From: Acutalibacteraceae bacterium | Lineage (GTDB): Bacteria > Bacillota > Clostridia > Oscillospirales > Acutalibacteraceae | DNA length: 27,062 bases | Direction: 5' to 3' | NCBI GenBank assembly: GCA_050946805.1 | Contig: JBMNVM010000001.1 | Coordinates: 1 to 27,062 of the forward strand | Part shown: piece by piece, positions 14,238 to 22,423 of the stretch | Layout of the letters: each line of letters begins with the position of its first letter | How positions within the stretch are numbered: position 1 is the stretch's first letter | Program-made: the position numbers and the translations under genes | The notes under the pieces: model-generated | Databases searched by the model: none | What the model saw: the letters and a program-made list of their open reading frames with translations, nothing else | What the model was told of the DNA's origin: nothing

Positions 14238-14585
14238 TCAATTTAATTTTCCTTTGGCGGTATTGATTGAGGAGATGAGCAATTTGCGAATGGTTCCGCA
14301 TTGTTTGTAAAGATTCTGCACATTTTCATTGTTAACAATGTCGGCTTCAACAAACAATTTTAGCCAGTATTCTGTTTCGTAACACTCTTTTAAAGCTATT
14401 TGAAATTTTGAAATGAAATCCGCTTTACTCTGGGCGTAATTCGCTTCATGTATGTTAGCGCCTATCGATGTTGCGGAACGCTCCAGTTGGTTTACAATGG
14501 AATAATGCCCCTTGATGGTGTCACATAGTTCTATAGTATTGACCGCAAGCGACATAGACAAATCAATCAGCTTGTTTTCTTTCAT
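14238..14585 (-). CDS. four-helix-bundle protein (23S rRNA IVS protein / Avd-like superfamily)
   Basis: NQLERSATSIGANIHEA, SKADFISKFQIALKECYETEYWL. ATG 14585 follows an AGAGGTGA RBS. Confidence 0.88.
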   Translation of the reverse strand: MKENKLIDLSMSLAVNTIELCDTIKGHYSIVNQLERSATSIGANIHEANYAQSKADFISKFQIALKECYETEYWLKLFVEADIVNNENVQNLYKQCGTIRKLLISSINTAKGKLN

Positions 14586-14648
14586 GCAGATCACCTCTGC
14601 GATTATTTATCATCTTTTATTGGATATTTCTACGGTGGTATGGGCGGT

Positions 14649-14784
14649 ACGAAATAAAATTCGTTTCCACATTTGCGAAGCAAATTTCATACGCCTTGGC
14701 GTATTTCATAGCTTTTGCTATTTCATTCGTTCTAAAGGAACGAATTTCATTGAAAAAAGCAAGTCTTGCGACTTGCTTTTTTCA
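14649..14784. repeat. tandem array of six hairpins with repeated ATTTCAT junctions
   Basis: ATTTCAT at 14684, 14703, 14720 and 14744, each separated by a self-complementary spacer; flanked by further hairpins at 14649-14664 and 14751-14784. Confidence 0.85.
14751..14784 (-). terminator. tRNA-Gly terminator-like hairpin
   Basis: TGAAAAAAGCAAGTC-TTGC-GACTTGCTTTTTTCA; perfect 15-bp stem abutting the tRNA CCA end. Confidence 0.75.
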
Positions 14785-14859
14785 TGGAGCGGGTGATGGG
14801 AATCGAACCCACACGACCAGCTTGGAAGGCTGGGATTCTAGCCATTGAACTACACCCGC
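14785..14859 (-). tRNA. tRNA-Gly (anticodon UCC)
   Basis: GCGGGTG acceptor stem; CCAGC-CTTCCAA-GCTGG anticodon arm; GGTTCGATTCC T arm; encoded CCA; 75 nt. Confidence 0.97.
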
Positions 14860-14979: not shown

Positions 14980-15008
14980 TTGACAAAAACAGGTGATAAT
15001 GCTATACT
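14980..15008 (+). promoter_or_regulatory. sigma-A promoter of the T-box operon
   Basis: TTGACA (14980-14985), 17 bp spacer, TG-extended TATACT (15003-15008). Confidence 0.85.
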
Positions 15009-15024
15009 TTCTAAAAAAATAAAT

Positions 15025-15281
15025 GCGTTGAAGGAAAGCGGGTTTACATCACGACTTTAAGAGAGCCGGCGGCTGGTGCGAGCCGGTAGGGCGGTGTGGA
15101 CTTTATCTCGTTCCGGAGCAGAGCGGCCGAAACTAAAGTAAGCCGCTACGGAATGCCCCGTTATCATGGCAAAAGGCTTGTTAGAGCCTTGCAAAGAGAC
15201 CGTTTTTTAACGGTAATCAGGGTGGTACCGCGAAGTAATTTCGTCCCTGAGACTGCTTTTAGCAGTCTCGGGGCTTTTTTT
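15025..15281 (+). promoter_or_regulatory. T-box riboswitch, probable Leu (CUC) specifier
   Basis: Stem I with AG box AGAGAGCC and GGTGCGA apical loop; specifier loop TTTAT-CTC-G closed by TTCC/GGAA; stem II with GAAA/AGTA; CCGTTA motif; T-box AATCAGGGTGGTACCGCG (15215-15232); antiterminator CAGGG/CCCTG; terminator 15245-15281 with T run. Confidence 0.93.
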
Positions 15282-15326
15282 ATACACAAGCCTTCAATGA
15301 CCGAATTGACGAAAGAGAGTGTTTTT

Positions 15327-16712
15327 ATGAAAATCCAAATTTCCGACAAAACCCTTTGCAGACAGGAAAATTCCTTTAGCTTTAAAGAAAAAATCGAGAT
15401 AGCAAGACAGCTTGAAAAGCTTTGTGTTGACACAATAGAGCTGCCTTCCATACAAAATGTCAAAGCCGATACGCTACTTATTAAAACAATCGCTTCCTTT
15501 GTGAAAAACAGCGTTATTTCGGTCTGCGCCGGCGAAAGTAAGGAAAGCCTTGAAAACGCCTTGACTGCCCTTGCTACCACCGCTCATCCGAGAATCAGGG
15601 TGGAGCTGCCGGTTTCCCCTTTCGGGATGGAGTATATGTTGCATATGAAAGCGCCGCAAATACTCGAAACTGCGGCCGAACTTATAGCGCTTGCAAAAGA
15701 AAAATGCCAAGAGGTTGAGTTTTGCGCCTTTGATGCTGCCCGCGCGGAGGAGGACTTCTTAAAAGAGGCAATCACCGCGGCCGTAAATGCCGGAGCGACG
15801 ATTATCACGGTTTGTGACAGCGCCGCCGAGATGATGCCCGACTCTTTCGGAGAATTTGTTGCCAAAATTAAGGTTCTTGTGCCGGAGAATGTGACGGTCG
15901 GCGTTTGTGCCTGCAACAAAAACGGTTTGGCGGCGGCGAATGCCATAATTGCAATAAAAAACGGTGCGCGGATTATTAAAACCAACGTAGGCGGCGAGGA
16001 AATCGACCTTAAAACGGTTGCCGAAATCTTGCGCAACTGCGGCAGGGCAATCGGTTTTGATTCGGGGGTTAAGTATACCGAAATGCACCGCATTATAAAG
16101 CAGATTAACTGGATTATTTTAAACGCCAAGAACGAAAAATCGGCTGTTACGGTTGTCGAACCCGACCGCAGCGGTATTCACCTTGATTCAAATGACGACA
16201 AGGATGCGGTTGCTGCCGCTGTTTTAAAGCTGGGGTATGACCTAAGTGACGAGGACATCACAAAGGTTTATGAGGAGGTCATGCGTGTAGCGGCGAGCAA
16301 AATGGTAAACGCCAAGGAACTTGATGCCATTGTCGCAAGCGTTGCCTTGCAGGTTCCGCCCACCTATAAGCTTGTAAGCTATGTTATCAACAGCGGCAAC
16401 ATTATTACTGCCTCCGCCCAAATAACCCTTGAAAGGGACGGAGAAAAGCTTCAGGGCATTTGCATAGGCGACGGTCCGGTAGACGCGGCCTTCCTTGCCA
16501 TTGAGCAGATTATCGGCCGCCATTATGAGCTGGACAATTTCCAAATCCAGTCGGTAACCGAGGGTAAAGAGGCTATGGGCTCGGCGGTTGTCAAGCTGCG
16601 CTCGGGCGGAAAGCTCTACTCCGGAACCGGTATTTCGACCGACATTTTGGGCGCAAGTATACGCGCTTTTTTGAGCGCCGTAAACAAAATCGTTTATGAG
16701 GAGGCATTATAA
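15327..16712 (+). CDS. degenerate 2-isopropylmalate synthase homologue with intact C-terminal regulatory domain (probable pseudoenzyme)
   Basis: 461 aa from ATG 15327. Collinear with LeuA (KIEIARQLEKL, PRI..SP..MEY, EF..FDAAR, AGATII, GDGPVDAA, STDILGASIRAFLSAVNK), but DTTLRDGEQ reads DKTLCRQEN, HxH reads CAC, and GERAGN is absent. Confidence 0.85.
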   Translation: MKIQISDKTLCRQENSFSFKEKIEIARQLEKLCVDTIELPSIQNVKADTLLIKTIASFVKNSVISVCAGESKESLENALTALATTAHPRIRVELPVSPFGMEYMLHMKAPQILETAAELIALAKEKCQEVEFCAFDAARAEEDFLKEAITAAVNAGATIITVCDSAAEMMPDSFGEFVAKIKVLVPENVTVGVCACNKNGLAAANAIIAIKNGARIIKTNVGGEEIDLKTVAEILRNCGRAIGFDSGVKYTEMHRIIKQINWIILNAKNEKSAVTVVEPDRSGIHLDSNDDKDAVAAAVLKLGYDLSDEDITKVYEEVMRVAASKMVNAKELDAIVASVALQVPPTYKLVSYVINSGNIITASAQITLERDGEKLQGICIGDGPVDAAFLAIEQIIGRHYELDNFQIQSVTEGKEAMGSAVVKLRSGGKLYSGTGISTDILGASIRAFLSAVNKIVYEEAL

Positions 16713-19219
16713 TGAAATTTTCTTTCATGACCAAGGGCTGGCACTCAATCAGCTTTGATGAATTCTGTAACGTTGCCAAGGAGCTTAAATTTAAAGGTAT
16801 AGAGCTTCATAACATACATAATCCTCTTTTTACCGATAAAGACGGCGCCTTCCATGACTATGCCGCGGCCTCAACCCTTAGAAAGCTTTATGAGATGAAG
16901 CTGGAGCTGCCCTGCATTGACACTATATGTGATATAGCGGTTCAAAACGCGGTTGATGAAAATATTGCGGAAATTACCGCCTGCTTAAATGTTGCCGCAA
17001 ATCTTAAAATACCGTACGTGCGGCTTCACGCTTGCGACACCGTGTATACCGAAGAAAAGAACAAGGCAACAACCGACCTTTTAAAAAAGGTGCTTCCCAT
17101 GGCCGAGGAAAAGGGCGTAACCCTGCTTGTCGAAACCAGCGGGATTTATTGCGATACCGCAAAGCTGCGGGATTTGCTTGACAGCTTTGCCTGCGACAGT
17201 CTGGCGGCTTTATGGGATATGTACTCCCCTTATTTCAATGCCGGCGAACAGCCCGAAGCCACAATTCAAAATCTCGGCGCCTATATAAAGCATGTGCATA
17301 TAAAGGATGCGGTCAGGACAGAAAAGGGTGTCGAATTTTGTCTTATCGGCGAGGGGGAAATGCCGATTATCGAAATGATGCAGGGGCTTCGTTCCCTTAA
17401 TTACGACGGCTTTTTCTCCCTTGAGTGGCACCCCAAATGGTGCGAAGAGCTTGATGACATGGAAATCATCTTCTCACAGTTCATAAACTACATGAAGCAG
17501 TTCGGGGATACCTCCAAGAGTGATAATTCCCTTTACTACAACCGCGATCATACGGGAAGATACGTCTGGGAAAAGGACAGGTTAATAGATGCCACCTTTT
17601 CGCAGGTTTTAGACCGCATGGTGGAGGAGTTTCCCGACCAGTACGCCTTTAAATACACCACCCTTGACTACACAAGGACATACAGCGAGTTCAGGGACGA
17701 TGTTGACCTTTTCGCCCGCTCCCTTATTTCAATGGGGGTAAAGGCGGGAACCCACGTTGCGGTATGGGCTTCCAACGTGCCGCAATGGTTTATTGCCTTT
17801 TGGGCAACCGTTAAAATAGGCGCTGTGCTTGTAACCGTAAATACCGCCTACAAAATTCACGAGGTTGAATACCTTTTAAGGCAGTCGGACACCCATACCC
17901 TTATTATGACCCAGGGCTCGAAGGACTGCAACTACGGTGAAATAATTGCTCAGCTTTGTCCCGAGCTTGAAAATACAAAGCCCGGCACACCGCTTCACAG
18001 CAAGCGGCTGCCCTTCCTTCGAAACGTAATAACCGTAGGATACAAGCAAAAGGGCTGCATGACATGGGCGGATGCCGTCGCCCGCGCTTCGCAGGTGCCG
18101 GTAAGCGAGGTTTACCGCATGGCGGCGTTGGTTGACAAGGATGATGTCTGCAATATGCAGTACACCTCCGGCACGACAGGTTTCCCTAAAGGTGTTATGC
18201 TGACACACTATAATGTTGTGAACAACGGAAAGTACATAGGCGACCATATGGATCTTTCGACCGCCGACCGCATGATGATTCAGGTTCCGATGTTCCACTG
18301 CTTTGGCATGGTGCTTTCCATGACCGCCTGCATGACCCACGGTTCCACCATGTGCCCGCTGCCATACTTTTCGCCCAAGCCGGCGCTGGCCTGTGTCAAC
18401 GCCGAGCGGATTACCGCATTTAACGGCGTGCCCACAATGTTTATTGCCATGATGCAGCATCCGGACTTTAAGAAGACCGATTTTTCACATGTAAGAATAG
18501 GTATTATGGCCGGCTCGAACTGCCCTGCGGAGCTTATGAAAAAGGCCTCAAAAGACATGAATATGCGGGAAATAATATCTGTCTACGGCCAGACCGAGGC
18601 CTCACCGGGCTGCACCATGAGCAGCTATTACGATTCGCTTGAGGTGCGTACCGAAACGGTAGGCTCCGCCTTTGCTCATATCGAATGTAAGATTATTGAC
18701 CCTGAAACCGGCAAGGAGTGTCCCGACGGTGTCAGCGGTGAGTTTGTCGTGCGCGGCTACAATGTAATGAAAGGGTATTATAAAATGCCCTCCGCCACCG
18801 CTTTGGCCATTGACAAGGACGGTTGGCTCCACACAGGCGACCTTGCGACCAGACGGCCGGACGGGAACTTTTGCATAACCGGCAGACTTAAAGACATGAT
18901 AATACGCGGCGGAGAAAACATTTATCCGAAAGAGATAGAGGAGTTTATCTACACCTGCGACAAGGTGCGGGATGTACAGGTTATCGGCGTGCCTGATGAA
19001 AAGTACGGCGAGGAGATAATGGCCTGCATTATATTAAAAGACGGGGAGACCATGACCGCTGATGAAATGAGGTCTTACATAGCTGCCAACCTTGCCCGCC
19101 ACAAGGTTCCAAGGTACATTGAATTTGTTGACAGCTTCCCTATGAACGCCGCAGGTAAAATTTTGAAATACAAAATGCGCGAAGAAGCTGCAGAAAGGTT
19201 GGGACTTTCGAAAAAATAA
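16712..19219 (+). CDS. fusion of an N-terminal xylose-isomerase-like (AP endonuclease 2) TIM barrel and a C-terminal AMP-binding acyl-CoA synthetase
   Basis: N-terminus: KGIELH, LLVETS, HVHIKD, GEGEMP, FSLEWH. C-terminus: QYTSGTTGFPKG, YGQTEASP, GWLHTGDL, GRLKDMIIRGGENIYPKEIE, NAAGKILK. TAATG overlap with the upstream gene. Confidence 0.9.
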   Translation: MKFSFMTKGWHSISFDEFCNVAKELKFKGIELHNIHNPLFTDKDGAFHDYAAASTLRKLYEMKLELPCIDTICDIAVQNAVDENIAEITACLNVAANLKIPYVRLHACDTVYTEEKNKATTDLLKKVLPMAEEKGVTLLVETSGIYCDTAKLRDLLDSFACDSLAALWDMYSPYFNAGEQPEATIQNLGAYIKHVHIKDAVRTEKGVEFCLIGEGEMPIIEMMQGLRSLNYDGFFSLEWHPKWCEELDDMEIIFSQFINYMKQFGDTSKSDNSLYYNRDHTGRYVWEKDRLIDATFSQVLDRMVEEFPDQYAFKYTTLDYTRTYSEFRDDVDLFARSLISMGVKAGTHVAVWASNVPQWFIAFWATVKIGAVLVTVNTAYKIHEVEYLLRQSDTHTLIMTQGSKDCNYGEIIAQLCPELENTKPGTPLHSKRLPFLRNVITVGYKQKGCMTWADAVARASQVPVSEVYRMAALVDKDDVCNMQYTSGTTGFPKGVMLTHYNVVNNGKYIGDHMDLSTADRMMIQVPMFHCFGMVLSMTACMTHGSTMCPLPYFSPKPALACVNAERITAFNGVPTMFIAMMQHPDFKKTDFSHVRIGIMAGSNCPAELMKKASKDMNMREIISVYGQTEASPGCTMSSYYDSLEVRTETVGSAFAHIECKIIDPETGKECPDGVSGEFVVRGYNVMKGYYKMPSATALAIDKDGWLHTGDLATRRPDGNFCITGRLKDMIIRGGENIYPKEIEEFIYTCDKVRDVQVIGVPDEKYGEEIMACIILKDGETMTADEMRSYIAANLARHKVPRYIEFVDSFPMNAAGKILKYKMREEAAERLGLSKK

Positions 19220-19220
19220 A

Positions 19221-20027
19221 ATGGTAAACGGAATTTATGTAATAGATGCACATTGCCATATATACCCCGAAAAGATTGCCGCCAAGGCCGTTGCCGGCAC
19301 CGACAGGTTCTACGGCGGAAAATCGGTGGGTACCGGTACGGTCGGCGATCTTTTGGAAAGGGGAGCCGAGGCCGGCATTGACCGTTTTATCGTTCAGTCG
19401 GTTGCCACAACGCCGAAACAGGTGCGAAGCATTAATGATTTTATCGCATCGCAGGTGTCCGAAAATCCGCAAAGGTTTATAGGCTTTGGCACACTGCACC
19501 CCGACAGCGAGGATATAAACGGGGATGTTGAACACTTAATGGAGCTGGGACTTAAAGGCGTAAAGCTGCACCCCGATATTCAGGCATTTAAAATCGACGA
19601 CTACCGCTGCCTTAAAATCTATGAGATTTGTGAGCAAAAGGGGCTGCCGATTTTAATGCACACCGGTGACTACCGCTTTGATTACTCAAATCCCAACCGC
19701 CTTTTGCCGATTTTGGATATTTATGAGAATTTAACGGTCATAGGGGCGCATTTGGGCGGCTGGTCGGTTTGGGATGAGGCATGCGAAAAATACGCCGGAA
19801 AACCGAAATTTTATGTTGACTGTTCCTCGAGTTTCAGTTATTTGAAACCCGAAAAGGCACTTGAAATTATACGCCGCTACGGCGCCGACAGGGTGCTTTT
19901 CGGCACCGATTACCCGATGTGGTCGCCAAAGGCCGAGCTTGAATATTTTTTGGCTCTCGGTCTTGACGAACACGAAAAAGAGTGTATACTAAATATAAAC
20001 GCCAAGAAGCTTTTAAATTTGGAGTAG
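19221..20027 (+). CDS. amidohydrolase family 2 metal-dependent hydrolase
   Basis: IDAHCHI, GVKLHP, ILMHTG, AHLGG, VLFGTDYP. Confidence 0.88.
   Translation: MVNGIYVIDAHCHIYPEKIAAKAVAGTDRFYGGKSVGTGTVGDLLERGAEAGIDRFIVQSVATTPKQVRSINDFIASQVSENPQRFIGFGTLHPDSEDINGDVEHLMELGLKGVKLHPDIQAFKIDDYRCLKIYEICEQKGLPILMHTGDYRFDYSNPNRLLPILDIYENLTVIGAHLGGWSVWDEACEKYAGKPKFYVDCSSSFSYLKPEKALEIIRRYGADRVLFGTDYPMWSPKAELEYFLALGLDEHEKECILNINAKKLLNLE
19963..19990 (+). promoter_or_regulatory. possible internal sigma-A promoter for metY-metA
   Basis: TTGACG (19963-19968), 16 bp spacer, TATACT (19985-19990), inside the 3' end of the amidohydrolase gene. Confidence 0.45.
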
Positions 20028-20068
20028 TACGGCCTTGACACAGAGAATTAAGATTTGGAGAAATTGTG

Positions 20069-21352
20069 ATGAGTAATTATAATATCGAGACAAAGTGTGT
20101 CCAAAGCGGGTATACTCCGGGCAACGGGGAACCGCGCGAAATTCCGATTATTCAAAGCACAACCTTTAAATATGCCACCTGCGAGGAAATGGGAAAGCTC
20201 TTTGACCTTGAGGCAAGCGGCTATTTTTATACTCGGCTTCAAAATCCTACAAACGATATGGTGGCGGCCAAGATCTGTGATATGGAGGGCGGCGCCGCCG
20301 CAATGCTGACCTCCTCTGGTCAGGCTGCATCCTTTTACTCTGTTTTTAATATAGCCTCCTGCGGCGATCATGTTGTCTGCTCTGCCTCAATTTACGGCGG
20401 AACATATAACCTTTTTGCCGTTACCATGAAAAGAATGGGGGTTGAATTTACCTTTGTTTCCCCCGACTGCTCGGAGGAAGAGCTTAACGCGGCATTCCGC
20501 GAAAACACAAAGGCGGTTTTCGGGGAAACCATAGCCAACCCGTCTTTGGTTGTTCTTGATATTGAAAAGTTCGCAAAAGCGGCTCACAGCCACGGGGTAC
20601 CGCTTATTATTGACAATACCTTTGCCACACCGGTCAACTGCCGCCCCTTTGAATGGGGAGCCGACATTGTAACCCATTCCACCACAAAGTATATGGACGG
20701 TCATGGCGCCGCCGTGGGCGGATGCATTGTCGATTCAGGCAAATTTGACTGGAGCAAATATCCGGATAAATTCCCGGGACTTTGTACTCCGGATGAAAGC
20801 TATCACGGCGTTATATATACCAAGCGCTTCGGAATAGAGGGCGCGTATATCACAAAGGCAACCGTTCAGCTTATGCGTGATTTAGGCTCCATTCAGGCGC
20901 CACAAAACGCCTTTTTACTTAATTTGGGGCTTGAAAGCCTGCATGTAAGAATGAAGCGCCACTGCGAAAATGCCCTTGCCGTTGCCGAGTATTTGGAGTC
21001 GGACGACAGGATTTCATGGGTCAACTACCCGGGGCTTAAAAGCAGTAAATACTATGAACTGGCCAAAAAGTATATGCCGAACGGCACTTGCGGCGTTGTA
21101 AGCTTTGGAATAAAGGGCGGAAGAGCCGCTGCCGAACGGTTCATGAAAAATTTAAAGCTTGCGGCCATTGAAACCCATGTTGCGGACGCGCGCACCTGCT
21201 GTCTGCATCCGGCAAGCACGACCCACCGCCAGATGAATGACGATGAACTCAAGGCCTGCGGAATCACGCCCGACCTTGTCCGTTTCTCCTGCGGAATTGA
21301 AAACTCAGGGGACTTGATTGAGGATATAAAGCAGGCTTTGGATAACATATAA
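20069..21352 (+). CDS. metY: O-acetylhomoserine sulfhydrylase (aminocarboxypropyltransferase)
   Basis: YTRLQNPT, TSSGQAA, ETIANP, DNTFATP, HSTTKYMDGHG (PLP lysine), HPASTTHRQ. ATG 20069, or GTG 20066. Confidence 0.88.
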   Translation: MSNYNIETKCVQSGYTPGNGEPREIPIIQSTTFKYATCEEMGKLFDLEASGYFYTRLQNPTNDMVAAKICDMEGGAAAMLTSSGQAASFYSVFNIASCGDHVVCSASIYGGTYNLFAVTMKRMGVEFTFVSPDCSEEELNAAFRENTKAVFGETIANPSLVVLDIEKFAKAAHSHGVPLIIDNTFATPVNCRPFEWGADIVTHSTTKYMDGHGAAVGGCIVDSGKFDWSKYPDKFPGLCTPDESYHGVIYTKRFGIEGAYITKATVQLMRDLGSIQAPQNAFLLNLGLESLHVRMKRHCENALAVAEYLESDDRISWVNYPGLKSSKYYELAKKYMPNGTCGVVSFGIKGGRAAAERFMKNLKLAAIETHVADARTCCLHPASTTHRQMNDDELKACGITPDLVRFSCGIENSGDLIEDIKQALDNI

Positions 21353-21376: not shown

Positions 21377-22300
21377 ATGCCTATTAAAATACCAAACGAT
21401 TTACCTGCCGTAAAAATTTTGAATGAAGAAAATATCTTTGTTATGACCGAAACAAGGGCCATAACGCAGGATATTCGTCCGCTTAAAATTCTGGTGCTTA
21501 ATTTAATGCCCAAGAAGATTGAGACCGAAACCCAGCTTTCAAGGCTTCTGGGAAACACTCCCTTGCAGGTGGATCTTGAGTTAATTCATACAAAAAGCCA
21601 TAAGTCCAAAAACACCTCGGCGGAGCATCTTATCGCCTTTTACAAAACCTTTGACGATATAAAGGATCGCGCCTTTGACGGGATGATTATCACCGGCGCG
21701 CCTGTCGAGCAGATGGAGTTTGAAGAGGTTGAGTACTGGAAAGAGCTTTGTGAAATAATGGAATGGACCAAAACCCACGTTCACAGCACCTTCCATATAT
21801 GCTGGGGGGCGCAGGCGGGGCTTTATTACCATTACGGAATAAAGAAATATCCGCTTGATAAAAAGCTTTTCGGCGTTTTCCCGCACAAGGTGGATTATAA
21901 AAAGTCCATACTTTTCCGCGGGTTTGACGATGTGTTCATGGTTCCCCAGTCCCGCCATACCACCGTATCGAGCGAGGATATAAAGCAGGTTAAAGAGCTG
22001 CGTATCTTATCAAGCTCTGACGAGTGCGGGGTTTACGCCATATCCACAAAGAACGGCAAGCAGATTTTCATAACCGGCCATTCGGAATATGACCGCGATA
22101 CGCTGGCCAACGAGTATTTCAGGGACTTAAACGAAGGCCGACCGATTGAAATTCCGAAAAACTATTTCCCGGGCGACGACCCCAAAAACACGCCGGTCGT
22201 AACATGGCGTTCGCACGCCAATCTGCTTTTCTCTAACTGGCTTAACTACTTTGTTTACCAGACAACTCCTTACGATATCGAAAAGATAAAAAAGGATTAA
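21377..22300 (+). CDS. metA: homoserine O-acyltransferase MetA, acetyl-CoA type
   Basis: [30 protein letters not shown] (E111), HICWGAQ (C142), [21 protein letters not shown]. Confidence 0.96.
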
Positions 22301-22386: not shown

Positions 22387-22423
22387 AAAAACCCGGAAAG
22401 ACCTGAATCTTTCCGGGATTTTT
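22387..22423. terminator. bidirectional terminator between metA and rubredoxin
   Basis: AAAAA-CCCGGAAAGA-CCTGAA-TCTTTCCGGG-ATTTTT. Confidence 0.75.

Follow-up and report, generated by a model that had tools for sequence, protein, structure and literature searches.

Organization of the locus

The 27,062-nucleotide stretch of the Acutalibacteraceae bacterium contig JBMNVM010000001.1 analyzed here (hereafter the window) contains a gene for a LeuA-like protein, whose translation and Pfam matches reveal a TIM barrel like that of 2-isopropylmalate synthase (IPMS, or LeuA) joined to a LeuA_dimer domain. The gene lies behind a leucine T-box and overlaps a second gene, which encodes a TIM barrel fused to an acyl-CoA ligase. 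As described below, the barrel of the LeuA-like protein has lost its catalytic residues throughout a large family of intact orthologues and the regulatory domain is the most conserved part of the protein, which we propose as a candidate leucine-sensing partner of the ligase. The features of the locus on which this proposal draws are as follows.

14980..15008, plus strand: promoter-like site, TTGACA, 17 nt, TATACT, with TG (consensus scan 11/12; a pattern match only)
15019..15251, plus strand: T-box leader, RF00230 (Rfam, 129.7 bits against a gathering score of 93)
15107-15109, plus strand: Leu specifier CUC, followed by G15110
15220-15232, plus strand: T-box sequence GGGTGGTACCGCG
15245..15282, plus strand: intrinsic terminator (attenuator) with a 13-bp stem (15245-15273) and T run (terminator scan); its 5' arm is shared in part with the last positions of the T-box match
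15327-16712, plus strand: LeuA-like gene, 461 residues and stop
15327..16001, plus strand: LeuA-like residues 1-225, IPMS-type TIM barrel without the catalytic set (Pfam, alignments, AF2)
16002..16304, plus strand: LeuA-like residues 226-326, remnant linker with subdomain I deleted and subdomain II kept (alignment to canonical LeuA)
16305..16712, plus strand: LeuA-like residues 327-461 and stop, LeuA_dimer regulatory domain (PF08502, GDGPxDA and GxSTDI)
16712..19219, plus strand: xylose-isomerase-like TIM barrel (1-270) fused to an ANL acyl-CoA ligase (~290-832) (Pfam, NCBIfam)

The open reading frame finder lists the LeuA-like gene as 15096-16712, beginning at a GTG. We place the start instead at ATG 15327, because the orthologues all begin MKI and because 15019-15282 is taken up by the T-box leader and its terminator. 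Translation from this ATG gives 461 residues followed by a stop, in agreement with an earlier reading of this DNA (the original prediction), which had described a LeuA pseudoenzyme with a frame open for 461 codons. Pfam assigns residues 14-223 to HMGL-like (PF00682, 1.2e-33) and residues 327-455 to LeuA_dimer (PF08502, 1.6e-31, 109 bits, 129 of the 131 profile positions). The latter match, together with the presence of G381-D-G-P-V-D-A and S-T-D-I-L, upholds the claim that the C-terminal allosteric domain is conserved. The protein nevertheless scores far under all of the NCBIfam equivalog cut-offs for IPMS, citramalate synthase, and homocitrate synthase; the best of these, NF002086, gives 272.8 bits against a cut-off of 532, and TIGR00973 gives 244 against 598.7. 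In an AlphaFold2 (AF2) monomer model built on 50 orthologues, the predicted local distance difference test score (pLDDT) of the barrel is >90 in most 10-residue blocks (range 69-97), and Foldseek superimposes the barrel on the IPMS catalytic domains 3rmj, 3ewb, and 3eeg with a root-mean-square deviation of 2.0 Å over ~270 columns. The barrel is 32% identical to that of the LeuA encoded in the same genome, and the regulatory domain is 37% identical to that of the same LeuA compared with 23% to that of a CimA-like protein.

The specifier was located from an alignment of 73 orthologous leaders and reads CUC followed by A or G in all 69 leaders that were parsed, while distant members carry either CUC or CUG, the latter in a 45% identical member (L092) and in front of a ligase fusion that stands alone (L096). 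A T-box motif precedes the LeuA-like gene in 77 of 81 loci. The combination of a full T-box with a conserved Leu specifier points to an operon that would be switched on by uncharged tRNA-Leu.

The LeuA-like and ligase-fusion genes are tightly joined. The stop codon of the former overlaps the ATG of the latter (TAATG), and the ribosome-binding site of the ligase fusion, GAGGAGG, consists of the last LeuA-like codons, which specify a conserved C-terminal Glu-Glu. The ligase fusion lies directly 3' of the LeuA-like gene in 76/76 loci with downstream sequence, the pairing holds in distant members of 37-46% identity, and a LeuA-like gene without the fusion was never seen in the loci examined. The conserved C-terminal Y-E-E-A of the LeuA-like protein (16695-16714) is coded by the same GAGGAGG that serves as the Shine-Dalgarno sequence of the ligase gene, and part of the C-terminal conservation may thus be due to this overlap.

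Loss of the catalytic apparatus

Alignment of the LeuA-like protein with the canonical LeuA (P0122) and the CimA-like protein (P0123) of the same genome bears out, motif by motif and position by position, the losses that the original prediction had listed. The DTSLRDGEQ of LeuA is replaced by D7-K-T-L-C-R-Q-E-N (15345-15371). In the close family, the position of the strand-1 substrate arginine is held by C, S, M, or V and that of the strand-1 metal-binding aspartate by G, R, S, and others, with aspartate present in only 9 of 106 representatives of the wider family. The catalytic glutamate of the "AED" motif, equivalent to E218 of Mycobacterium tuberculosis (Mtb) IPMS, is F135 here and V, I, or L elsewhere in the family, PDT has become C163-D-S, and the HxH metal pair of strand 7 (HCH in LeuA) has become C194-A-C196 (15906-15914). 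No histidine occurs at either HxH position in 120 close orthologues or in 106 representative clusters. In addition, relative to the LeuA of the same genome, the region of GIGERAGN carries a 5-residue deletion, and a 27-residue deletion removes subdomain I (HEAGIHQHG...YEIM), which contains the equivalents of Mtb H379 and Y410; GERAGN and subdomain I are deleted in 106/106 representative clusters. Catalytic roles have been described for Mtb E218, H379, and Y410 (PMC10464499, PMC9860122), and the activity of Mtb IPMS is abolished by the substitutions R80A/K and E218A (PMC10464499).

The original prediction had further suggested that the His-to-Cys swaps might create a new metal or redox site. 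This idea fails on conservation. Cys194 is present in 13 of the 120 close orthologues and Cys196 in 1/120, the protein of the window alone, and the consensus at positions 194-196 is S-A-D in the close family and [E/Q/S]-C-S in the wide family. The cysteine pair is thus private to the protein of the window, which leaves a conserved metal or redox site unsupported, and we reject it.

Two full-length LeuA-like proteins show partial erosion of the same motifs. Of these, P0262 (503 residues) and P0269 (511 residues), one carries DSTLCEGER, VHSQND, and GIGERAGN, and the other DTTLCDGEQ, IRAYND, and GIGKRAGC. Both fall outside the short family in a quick tree and may be independent inactivations of LeuA.

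Family spread and selection

The LeuA-like protein belongs to a sizable family. A search of 5.8 billion proteins returned >100 intact proteins of 455-463 residues at 64-75% identity, and a profile search of 1.84 billion representatives recovered at least 105 full-length clusters at 50% identity, scoring from 739 to ~310 bits; the first canonical LeuA appeared below them, at only ~269 bits. Relatives are encoded in at least 437 species-representative genomes, and the carriers, Oscillospirales-type bacteria from animal guts, are labelled Acutalibacteraceae, Oscillospiraceae, Ruminococcus, or unclassified Clostridia. In a phylogeny that was a quick IQ-TREE search only, the family of ~460-residue proteins forms one clade apart from canonical LeuA with an SH-aLRT (Shimodaira-Hasegawa-like approximate likelihood ratio test) support of 99. 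Across the 120 close orthologues and 106 representatives, GDGPxDA and G-x-S-T-D-I are nearly invariant.

The genes are under purifying selection. All 80 of the orthologues examined are intact, open, and full length. Codon alignments of these 80 genes, analyzed by the Nei-Gojobori method over 27 independent pairs with synonymous divergence (dS) <1.5, gave a median ratio of nonsynonymous to synonymous substitution rates (omega) of 0.105 for the barrel, 0.098 for the linker, and 0.042 for the regulatory domain. This per-domain comparison, which the original prediction had suggested, agrees with its view that selection rather than decay shaped the protein, with the lowest ratio in the domain that it took to be retained. 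The same order emerges from the wide family. Among the 106 clusters at 50% identity, 42 of the 135 regulatory-domain positions are conserved at ≥85%, compared with 20 of the 225 barrel positions, and the commonest residue at a position has an average frequency of 0.48 in the barrel, 0.38 in the linker, and 0.69 in the regulatory domain. Conservation centers on the ligand domain, but the barrel too is clearly maintained. Thus, the description of catalysis as "eroded" was accurate for the motifs, but the term understates a barrel that is strongly constrained (omega 0.10).

These data also bear on two other explanations of the family. The loss of all of the catalytic motifs is what one would expect of an ordinary pseudogene or of a decaying leuA annotated in error. 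However, 80/80 orthologues are open at an omega of 0.04-0.10, at least 105 clusters exist at 50% identity, and the T-box is retained, as is the translational coupling; the chance that this explanation is correct is negligible, and pseudogene decay is ruled out by the intact orthologues and purifying selection. A second explanation is that the protein is a neofunctionalized enzyme that catalyzes a different, metal-independent reaction in the leucine branch. The constraint on the barrel would suit such an enzyme, as would the strand-end charged residues R91, E93, K198, K218, E131, D136, and D164, which are invariant in the close family, and the operon encodes two further barrel proteins. Yet these invariants are lost in the wider family (R91 13/106, E93 16/106, K198 11/106), a deletion has taken away the lid subdomain, which in IPMS closes over the active site, and the leucine-branch ligase occurs without any LeuA-like protein in at least 14 genomes. 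We therefore consider a new enzymatic activity quite improbable.

Relation to canonical LeuA

The genome of the window encodes a canonical LeuA, whose gene adjoins ilvD on another contig (C38), as well as leuB. Co-occurrence was examined in 121 genomes of the family, one per genus. The LeuA-like gene is present in 24 of these and canonical LeuA in 7, and the genome of the window is the only one in which the two overlap. The anticorrelation (0/23) is not significant, canonical LeuA being rare family-wide (7/121). Twenty LeuA-like carriers, whose genomes are 92-100% complete, were scanned with PF00682; 18 gave no canonical IPMS, and the remaining 2 each have one stronger HMGL-like match that is only 30% identical to the LeuA of the window's genome.

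One might suppose that the LeuA-like protein forms heterodimers with a genuine IPMS and so alters its feedback during leucine starvation. Indeed, IPMS is a domain-swapped dimer of which engineered heterodimers are viable (PMC9860122), and a canonical LeuA is at hand in the window's own genome. However, canonical LeuA is absent from most of the carriers sampled, which argues that the LeuA-like protein does not act through it, and the fixed neighbour of the LeuA-like gene is the ligase and not leuA. Such a role is very unlikely, and as a general one it is ruled out on co-occurrence.

Context of a probable branched-acid salvage route

Rumen and gut anaerobes build branched-chain amino acids from isovalerate, isobutyrate, and 2-methylbutyrate, and the isovalerate-to-leucine route has been known from labelling for decades. 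The genes that surround the LeuA-like/ligase pair fit such a route. In approximately 27-32 of the 80 loci, an upstream block encodes a helix-turn-helix (HTH)-cupin-ligase fusion, a P-loop NTPase, the alpha, beta, and gamma subunits of a 2-oxoacid:ferredoxin oxidoreductase (VOR), and IlvE. VorB (543 bits against a cut-off of 399) and IlvE (499 bits against 307) score above their NCBIfam cut-offs, and the best NCBIfam match of the HTH-cupin-ligase fusion is MbcS. In L090 and L091, the LeuA-like and ligase genes lie inside the VOR/IlvE operon, and in L094 a single strand carries, in order, a Leu-T-box, the LeuA-like gene, the ligase fusion, an Ile-T-box and ligase, a Val-T-box and ligase, IlvE, the P-loop protein, and VOR.

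In the genome of the window, the corresponding genes reside on a separate contig (C46; L089:46-9612), which holds Ile- and Val-T-box ligases followed by the P-loop NTPase, VOR alpha, beta, and gamma, and IlvE. The T-box at 46-284 has an AUC (Ile) specifier and that at 2654-2909 a GUA (Val) specifier, and each precedes a fusion of HTH and cupin domains to an MbcS-like acyl-CoA ligase (758 and 765 residues) whose best match is MbcS, at 449 and 435 bits. It is in itself unusual to find HTH-cupin heads on metabolic ligases. Across the 121 genomes, VorB is present in 24/24 that carry the LeuA-like gene, often within ~11 kb, compared with 47/97 of the others.

A carboxylation route from isovalerate to leucine is mentioned for rumen bacteria (PMC7356843), and MbcS, the methylbutyryl-CoA synthetase of Staphylococcus aureus, activates 2-methylbutyrate and isobutyrate but uses isovalerate poorly (PMC10026030). 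Because MbcS is poor on isovalerate, a separate, leucine-controlled ligase would be a fitting candidate for the isovalerate branch still missing from that route. Our literature searches found no publications that assign activation genes or their control to branched-acid carboxylation, and none that tie isovalerate carboxylation to specific ligase genes.

Stand-alone ligase fusions and the metal site of the TIM domain

The ligase fusion is present in 39 of the 121 genomes, comprising all of the LeuA-like carriers and about 15 others. In 14 fusions that stand alone (L096-L109), no LeuA-like gene lies within ~2.5 kb upstream, and a Leu specifier was found in 6/6 of their readable leaders. Since the fusion can occur alone behind Leu T-boxes and the LeuA-like gene never occurs without the fusion, the LeuA-like protein is best described as an add-on. 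The metal site of the fusion's own TIM domain follows this division. The constellation E141-D169-H172-H196-D199-E238 is complete in 14/14 stand-alone fusions and in 0/40 fusions with a LeuA-like neighbour, taken from the window (16712-17521) and L006-L095, which have lost one to four of its residues (for example, H172 to S or A, D169 to N, and E238 to V), counts that come from related genomes and do not represent independent events. Thus, the chemistry can run without the LeuA-like protein, and the presence of that protein accompanies decay of the ligase's own metal site. Where it is present, the TIM domain of the ligase may be turning into a pseudoenzyme itself. It is also possible, and we suggest this tentatively from the sequence patterns, that the LeuA-like protein is a trans-acting leucine-sensing subunit, recycled from the classical leucine pathway, that has replaced the role of the ligase's own metal-binding TIM domain.

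The same data can be read without leucine sensing. In this alternative, the LeuA-like protein would be a structural or substrate-handling partner, either a scaffold or chaperone that stabilizes the ligase or a protein that passes isovaleryl-CoA or 2-oxoisocaproate among the ligase, VOR, and IlvE by way of its residual barrel. Several observations are in keeping with it. The barrel is strongly constrained (omega 0.105), the residues D7, T9, S97, D136, R139, and D164 of the former active-site face are kept family-wide, E102, K108, P95, and F19 are family-specific invariants, the pair sits inside the VOR/IlvE operon in two loci, and the erosion of the TIM metal site in all 40 linked fusions, set against its integrity in the 14 that stand alone, suggests that the two barrels are functionally tied. 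However, a pure scaffold has no need of a regulatory domain with ligand-pocket motifs, which is by far the most conserved part of the protein, and the barrel no longer has its residues for binding the 2-oxoacid and the metal. Although it is the more substantial of the competing explanations, we regard this one as unlikely.

Downstream genes and flanking features

The ligase fusion is followed, in the window, by these genes and a terminator.

19221..20027, plus strand: Amidohydro_2 (PF04909) protein, with HxH...H...H...D retained
20066-21352, plus strand: metY-like (O-acetylhomoserine sulfhydrylase)
21377-22300, plus strand: metA (homoserine O-acetyltransferase)
22392-22417: first strong terminator downstream (terminator scan)

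The Amidohydro_2 gene is present in 60 of the 80 examined loci (61 with the window) and is not adjacent in L091, L092, or L094. The nearest solved protein to its product is the uncharacterized 3irs, followed by decarboxylases at weak E-values. The metY-like gene lies downstream in 24/80 examined loci and metA in 19/80 (25 and 20 with the window). In the window, metY-like starts 39 nt after the amidohydrolase gene, and it and metA precede the first strong terminator. Hence, methionine-pathway genes appear to lie within the leucine-controlled transcript, both in the window and in approximately one-quarter to one-third of the loci examined. Transcription of metY-like and metA could also begin independently, from a promoter-like site at 19963-19990. 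In one related locus, a ZMP/ZTP riboswitch (65.9 bits, L053:12466-12551) lies downstream of the LeuA-like/ligase pair and is probably unrelated.

Upstream of the leucine T-box, the window contains a tRNA-Gly(UCC) at 14785-14859 on the minus strand, directly followed by a match to Gut-1 RNA (RF01706; 51.0 bits, gathering score 50) at 14679-14752, also on the minus strand, after which comes a small open reading frame of 118 residues at 14238-14594.

Proposed role of the LeuA-like protein

Collectively, the catalytic losses, the selection on the regulatory domain, and the genomic setting lead us to propose, with a probability of about 0.5, that the LeuA-like protein is noncatalytic and serves the leucine branch of branched-acid salvage as a regulatory subunit that binds leucine. 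The sensor or scaffold role put forward in the original prediction fits the context that we describe, namely the Leu T-box, the translational coupling to the ligase, and the linkage to VOR and IlvE. Leucine is the putative ligand because of the Leu T-box, the higher identity of the regulatory domain to LeuA than to the CimA-like protein (37% versus 23%), and the retained motifs at helix N-termini; in IPMS, the carboxylate of leucine sits between two helix N-termini (PMC11057210). From sequence and gene context we infer that the protein binds leucine and contacts the ligase, that the ligase acts on isovalerate, and which way the regulation runs.

In the mechanism that we envisage, uncharged tRNA-Leu would cause the T-box to permit read-through transcription, and the LeuA-like protein and the TIM-barrel/acyl-CoA-ligase fusion would be co-produced by way of their overlapping stop and start codons. 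The ligase would then convert a branched acid, most likely isovalerate, to its CoA ester, isovaleryl-CoA, which VOR would reductively carboxylate to 2-oxoisocaproate, and transamination by IlvE would yield leucine. By binding the ligase, the LeuA-like protein would impose fast end-product feedback through its LeuA-type leucine pocket, with its barrel kept as a structural body. The LeuA-like/ligase pair would in this way copy the two-tier control, by T-box and allosteric LeuA, of the classical pathway.

Several points weigh against this proposal. The regulatory domains of CimA proteins share the same motifs but bind isoleucine, and the identity of the ligand therefore rests on context. Residues 402-435 of the regulatory domain are poorly predicted in the AF2 monomer model. 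The barrel, with an omega of 0.10, is under tighter constraint than a spacer needs and may therefore have a function of its own. As to the ligase, it is of the general fatty-acyl/malonyl-CoA type, with its best assignment to a PRK12583-like ANL subgroup (673 bits against a cut-off of 832), and it lacks a match that would identify it as one of the known isovalerate ligases; its solved relatives are only generic fatty-acyl, feruloyl, and malonyl-CoA ligases, which do not indicate a substrate. A search among longer proteins found no fused LeuA-like::ligase, its single match being of unrelated architecture, although this is weak evidence. Finally, the roles of the ligase's TIM domain and of the Amidohydro_2 protein are unexplained, so that the chemistry may go beyond simple isovalerate activation; the TIM domain is confidently modelled (pLDDT 93), and its fold matches generic sugar isomerase, epimerase, and dehydratase barrels.

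Comparison with known systems

The LeuA-like protein shares its domain order with LeuA (EC 2.3.3.13, a DRE-TIM metallolyase; TIGR00973/NF002086; 3rmj, 3ewb, 1sr9/3fig), including the barrel, the linker, and the beta-beta-beta-alpha regulatory domain with its GDGPxDA and GxSTDI motifs. In contrast to LeuA, it is 45 residues shorter, attains about half of the NCBIfam cut-off score, is paired with an acyl-CoA ligase rather than with leuBCD, and is found mostly in genomes without a detected canonical LeuA.

The leu operons of Firmicutes sit behind Leu T-boxes, and the operon described here resembles T-box ilv-leu operons in its full-length T-box, CUC specifier, terminator/antiterminator arrangement, and genes expected to raise the leucine supply. 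However, it contains no leuABCD, leuS, or transporter gene and instead encodes a dead LeuA, the ligase fusion, an amidohydrolase, and, in the window, MetY and MetA. With respect to MbcS and the rumen carboxylation route, the Ile- and Val-T-box ligases of the same genome match MbcS and lie with VorB and IlvE, whereas the ligase of the leucine branch falls into a different ANL subgroup, has an N-terminal TIM barrel, and often has a LeuA-like partner.

The closest analogy is with HisZ, an inactive paralogue of HisRS that serves as the histidine-sensing regulatory subunit of the short-form ATP phosphoribosyltransferase and for which both the complex and its allostery are proven. In each case, catalysis is lost, the amino-acid-binding part is kept, and a catalytic partner is co-encoded, and by analogy end-product feedback is proposed for the LeuA-like protein. 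The two differ in fold and in pathway, and the complex and allostery of the LeuA-like protein are deduced from genomics. We found no publications that join isopropylmalate synthase with the term pseudoenzyme. Should the LeuA-like protein indeed be a trans-acting sensor recycled from the classical pathway, it would be a first case of an IPMS-derived pseudoenzyme that provides allosteric control of an enzyme to which it is unrelated. It would also provide a natural example of an enzyme becoming a ligand-sensing pseudoenzyme while its source pathway is lost, as most carriers lack canonical LeuA.

LeuA-like genes should not be annotated as 2-isopropylmalate synthase, since metabolic models of gut bacteria would then wrongly predict that the carriers are leucine prototrophs through the classical pathway. 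For the leucine branch, the LeuA-like protein and its ligase are concrete candidates that can be tested. If the reading as a trans-acting sensor holds, the two would together form the regulated step by which isovalerate enters carboxylation to leucine, a route for which we found no assigned genes.

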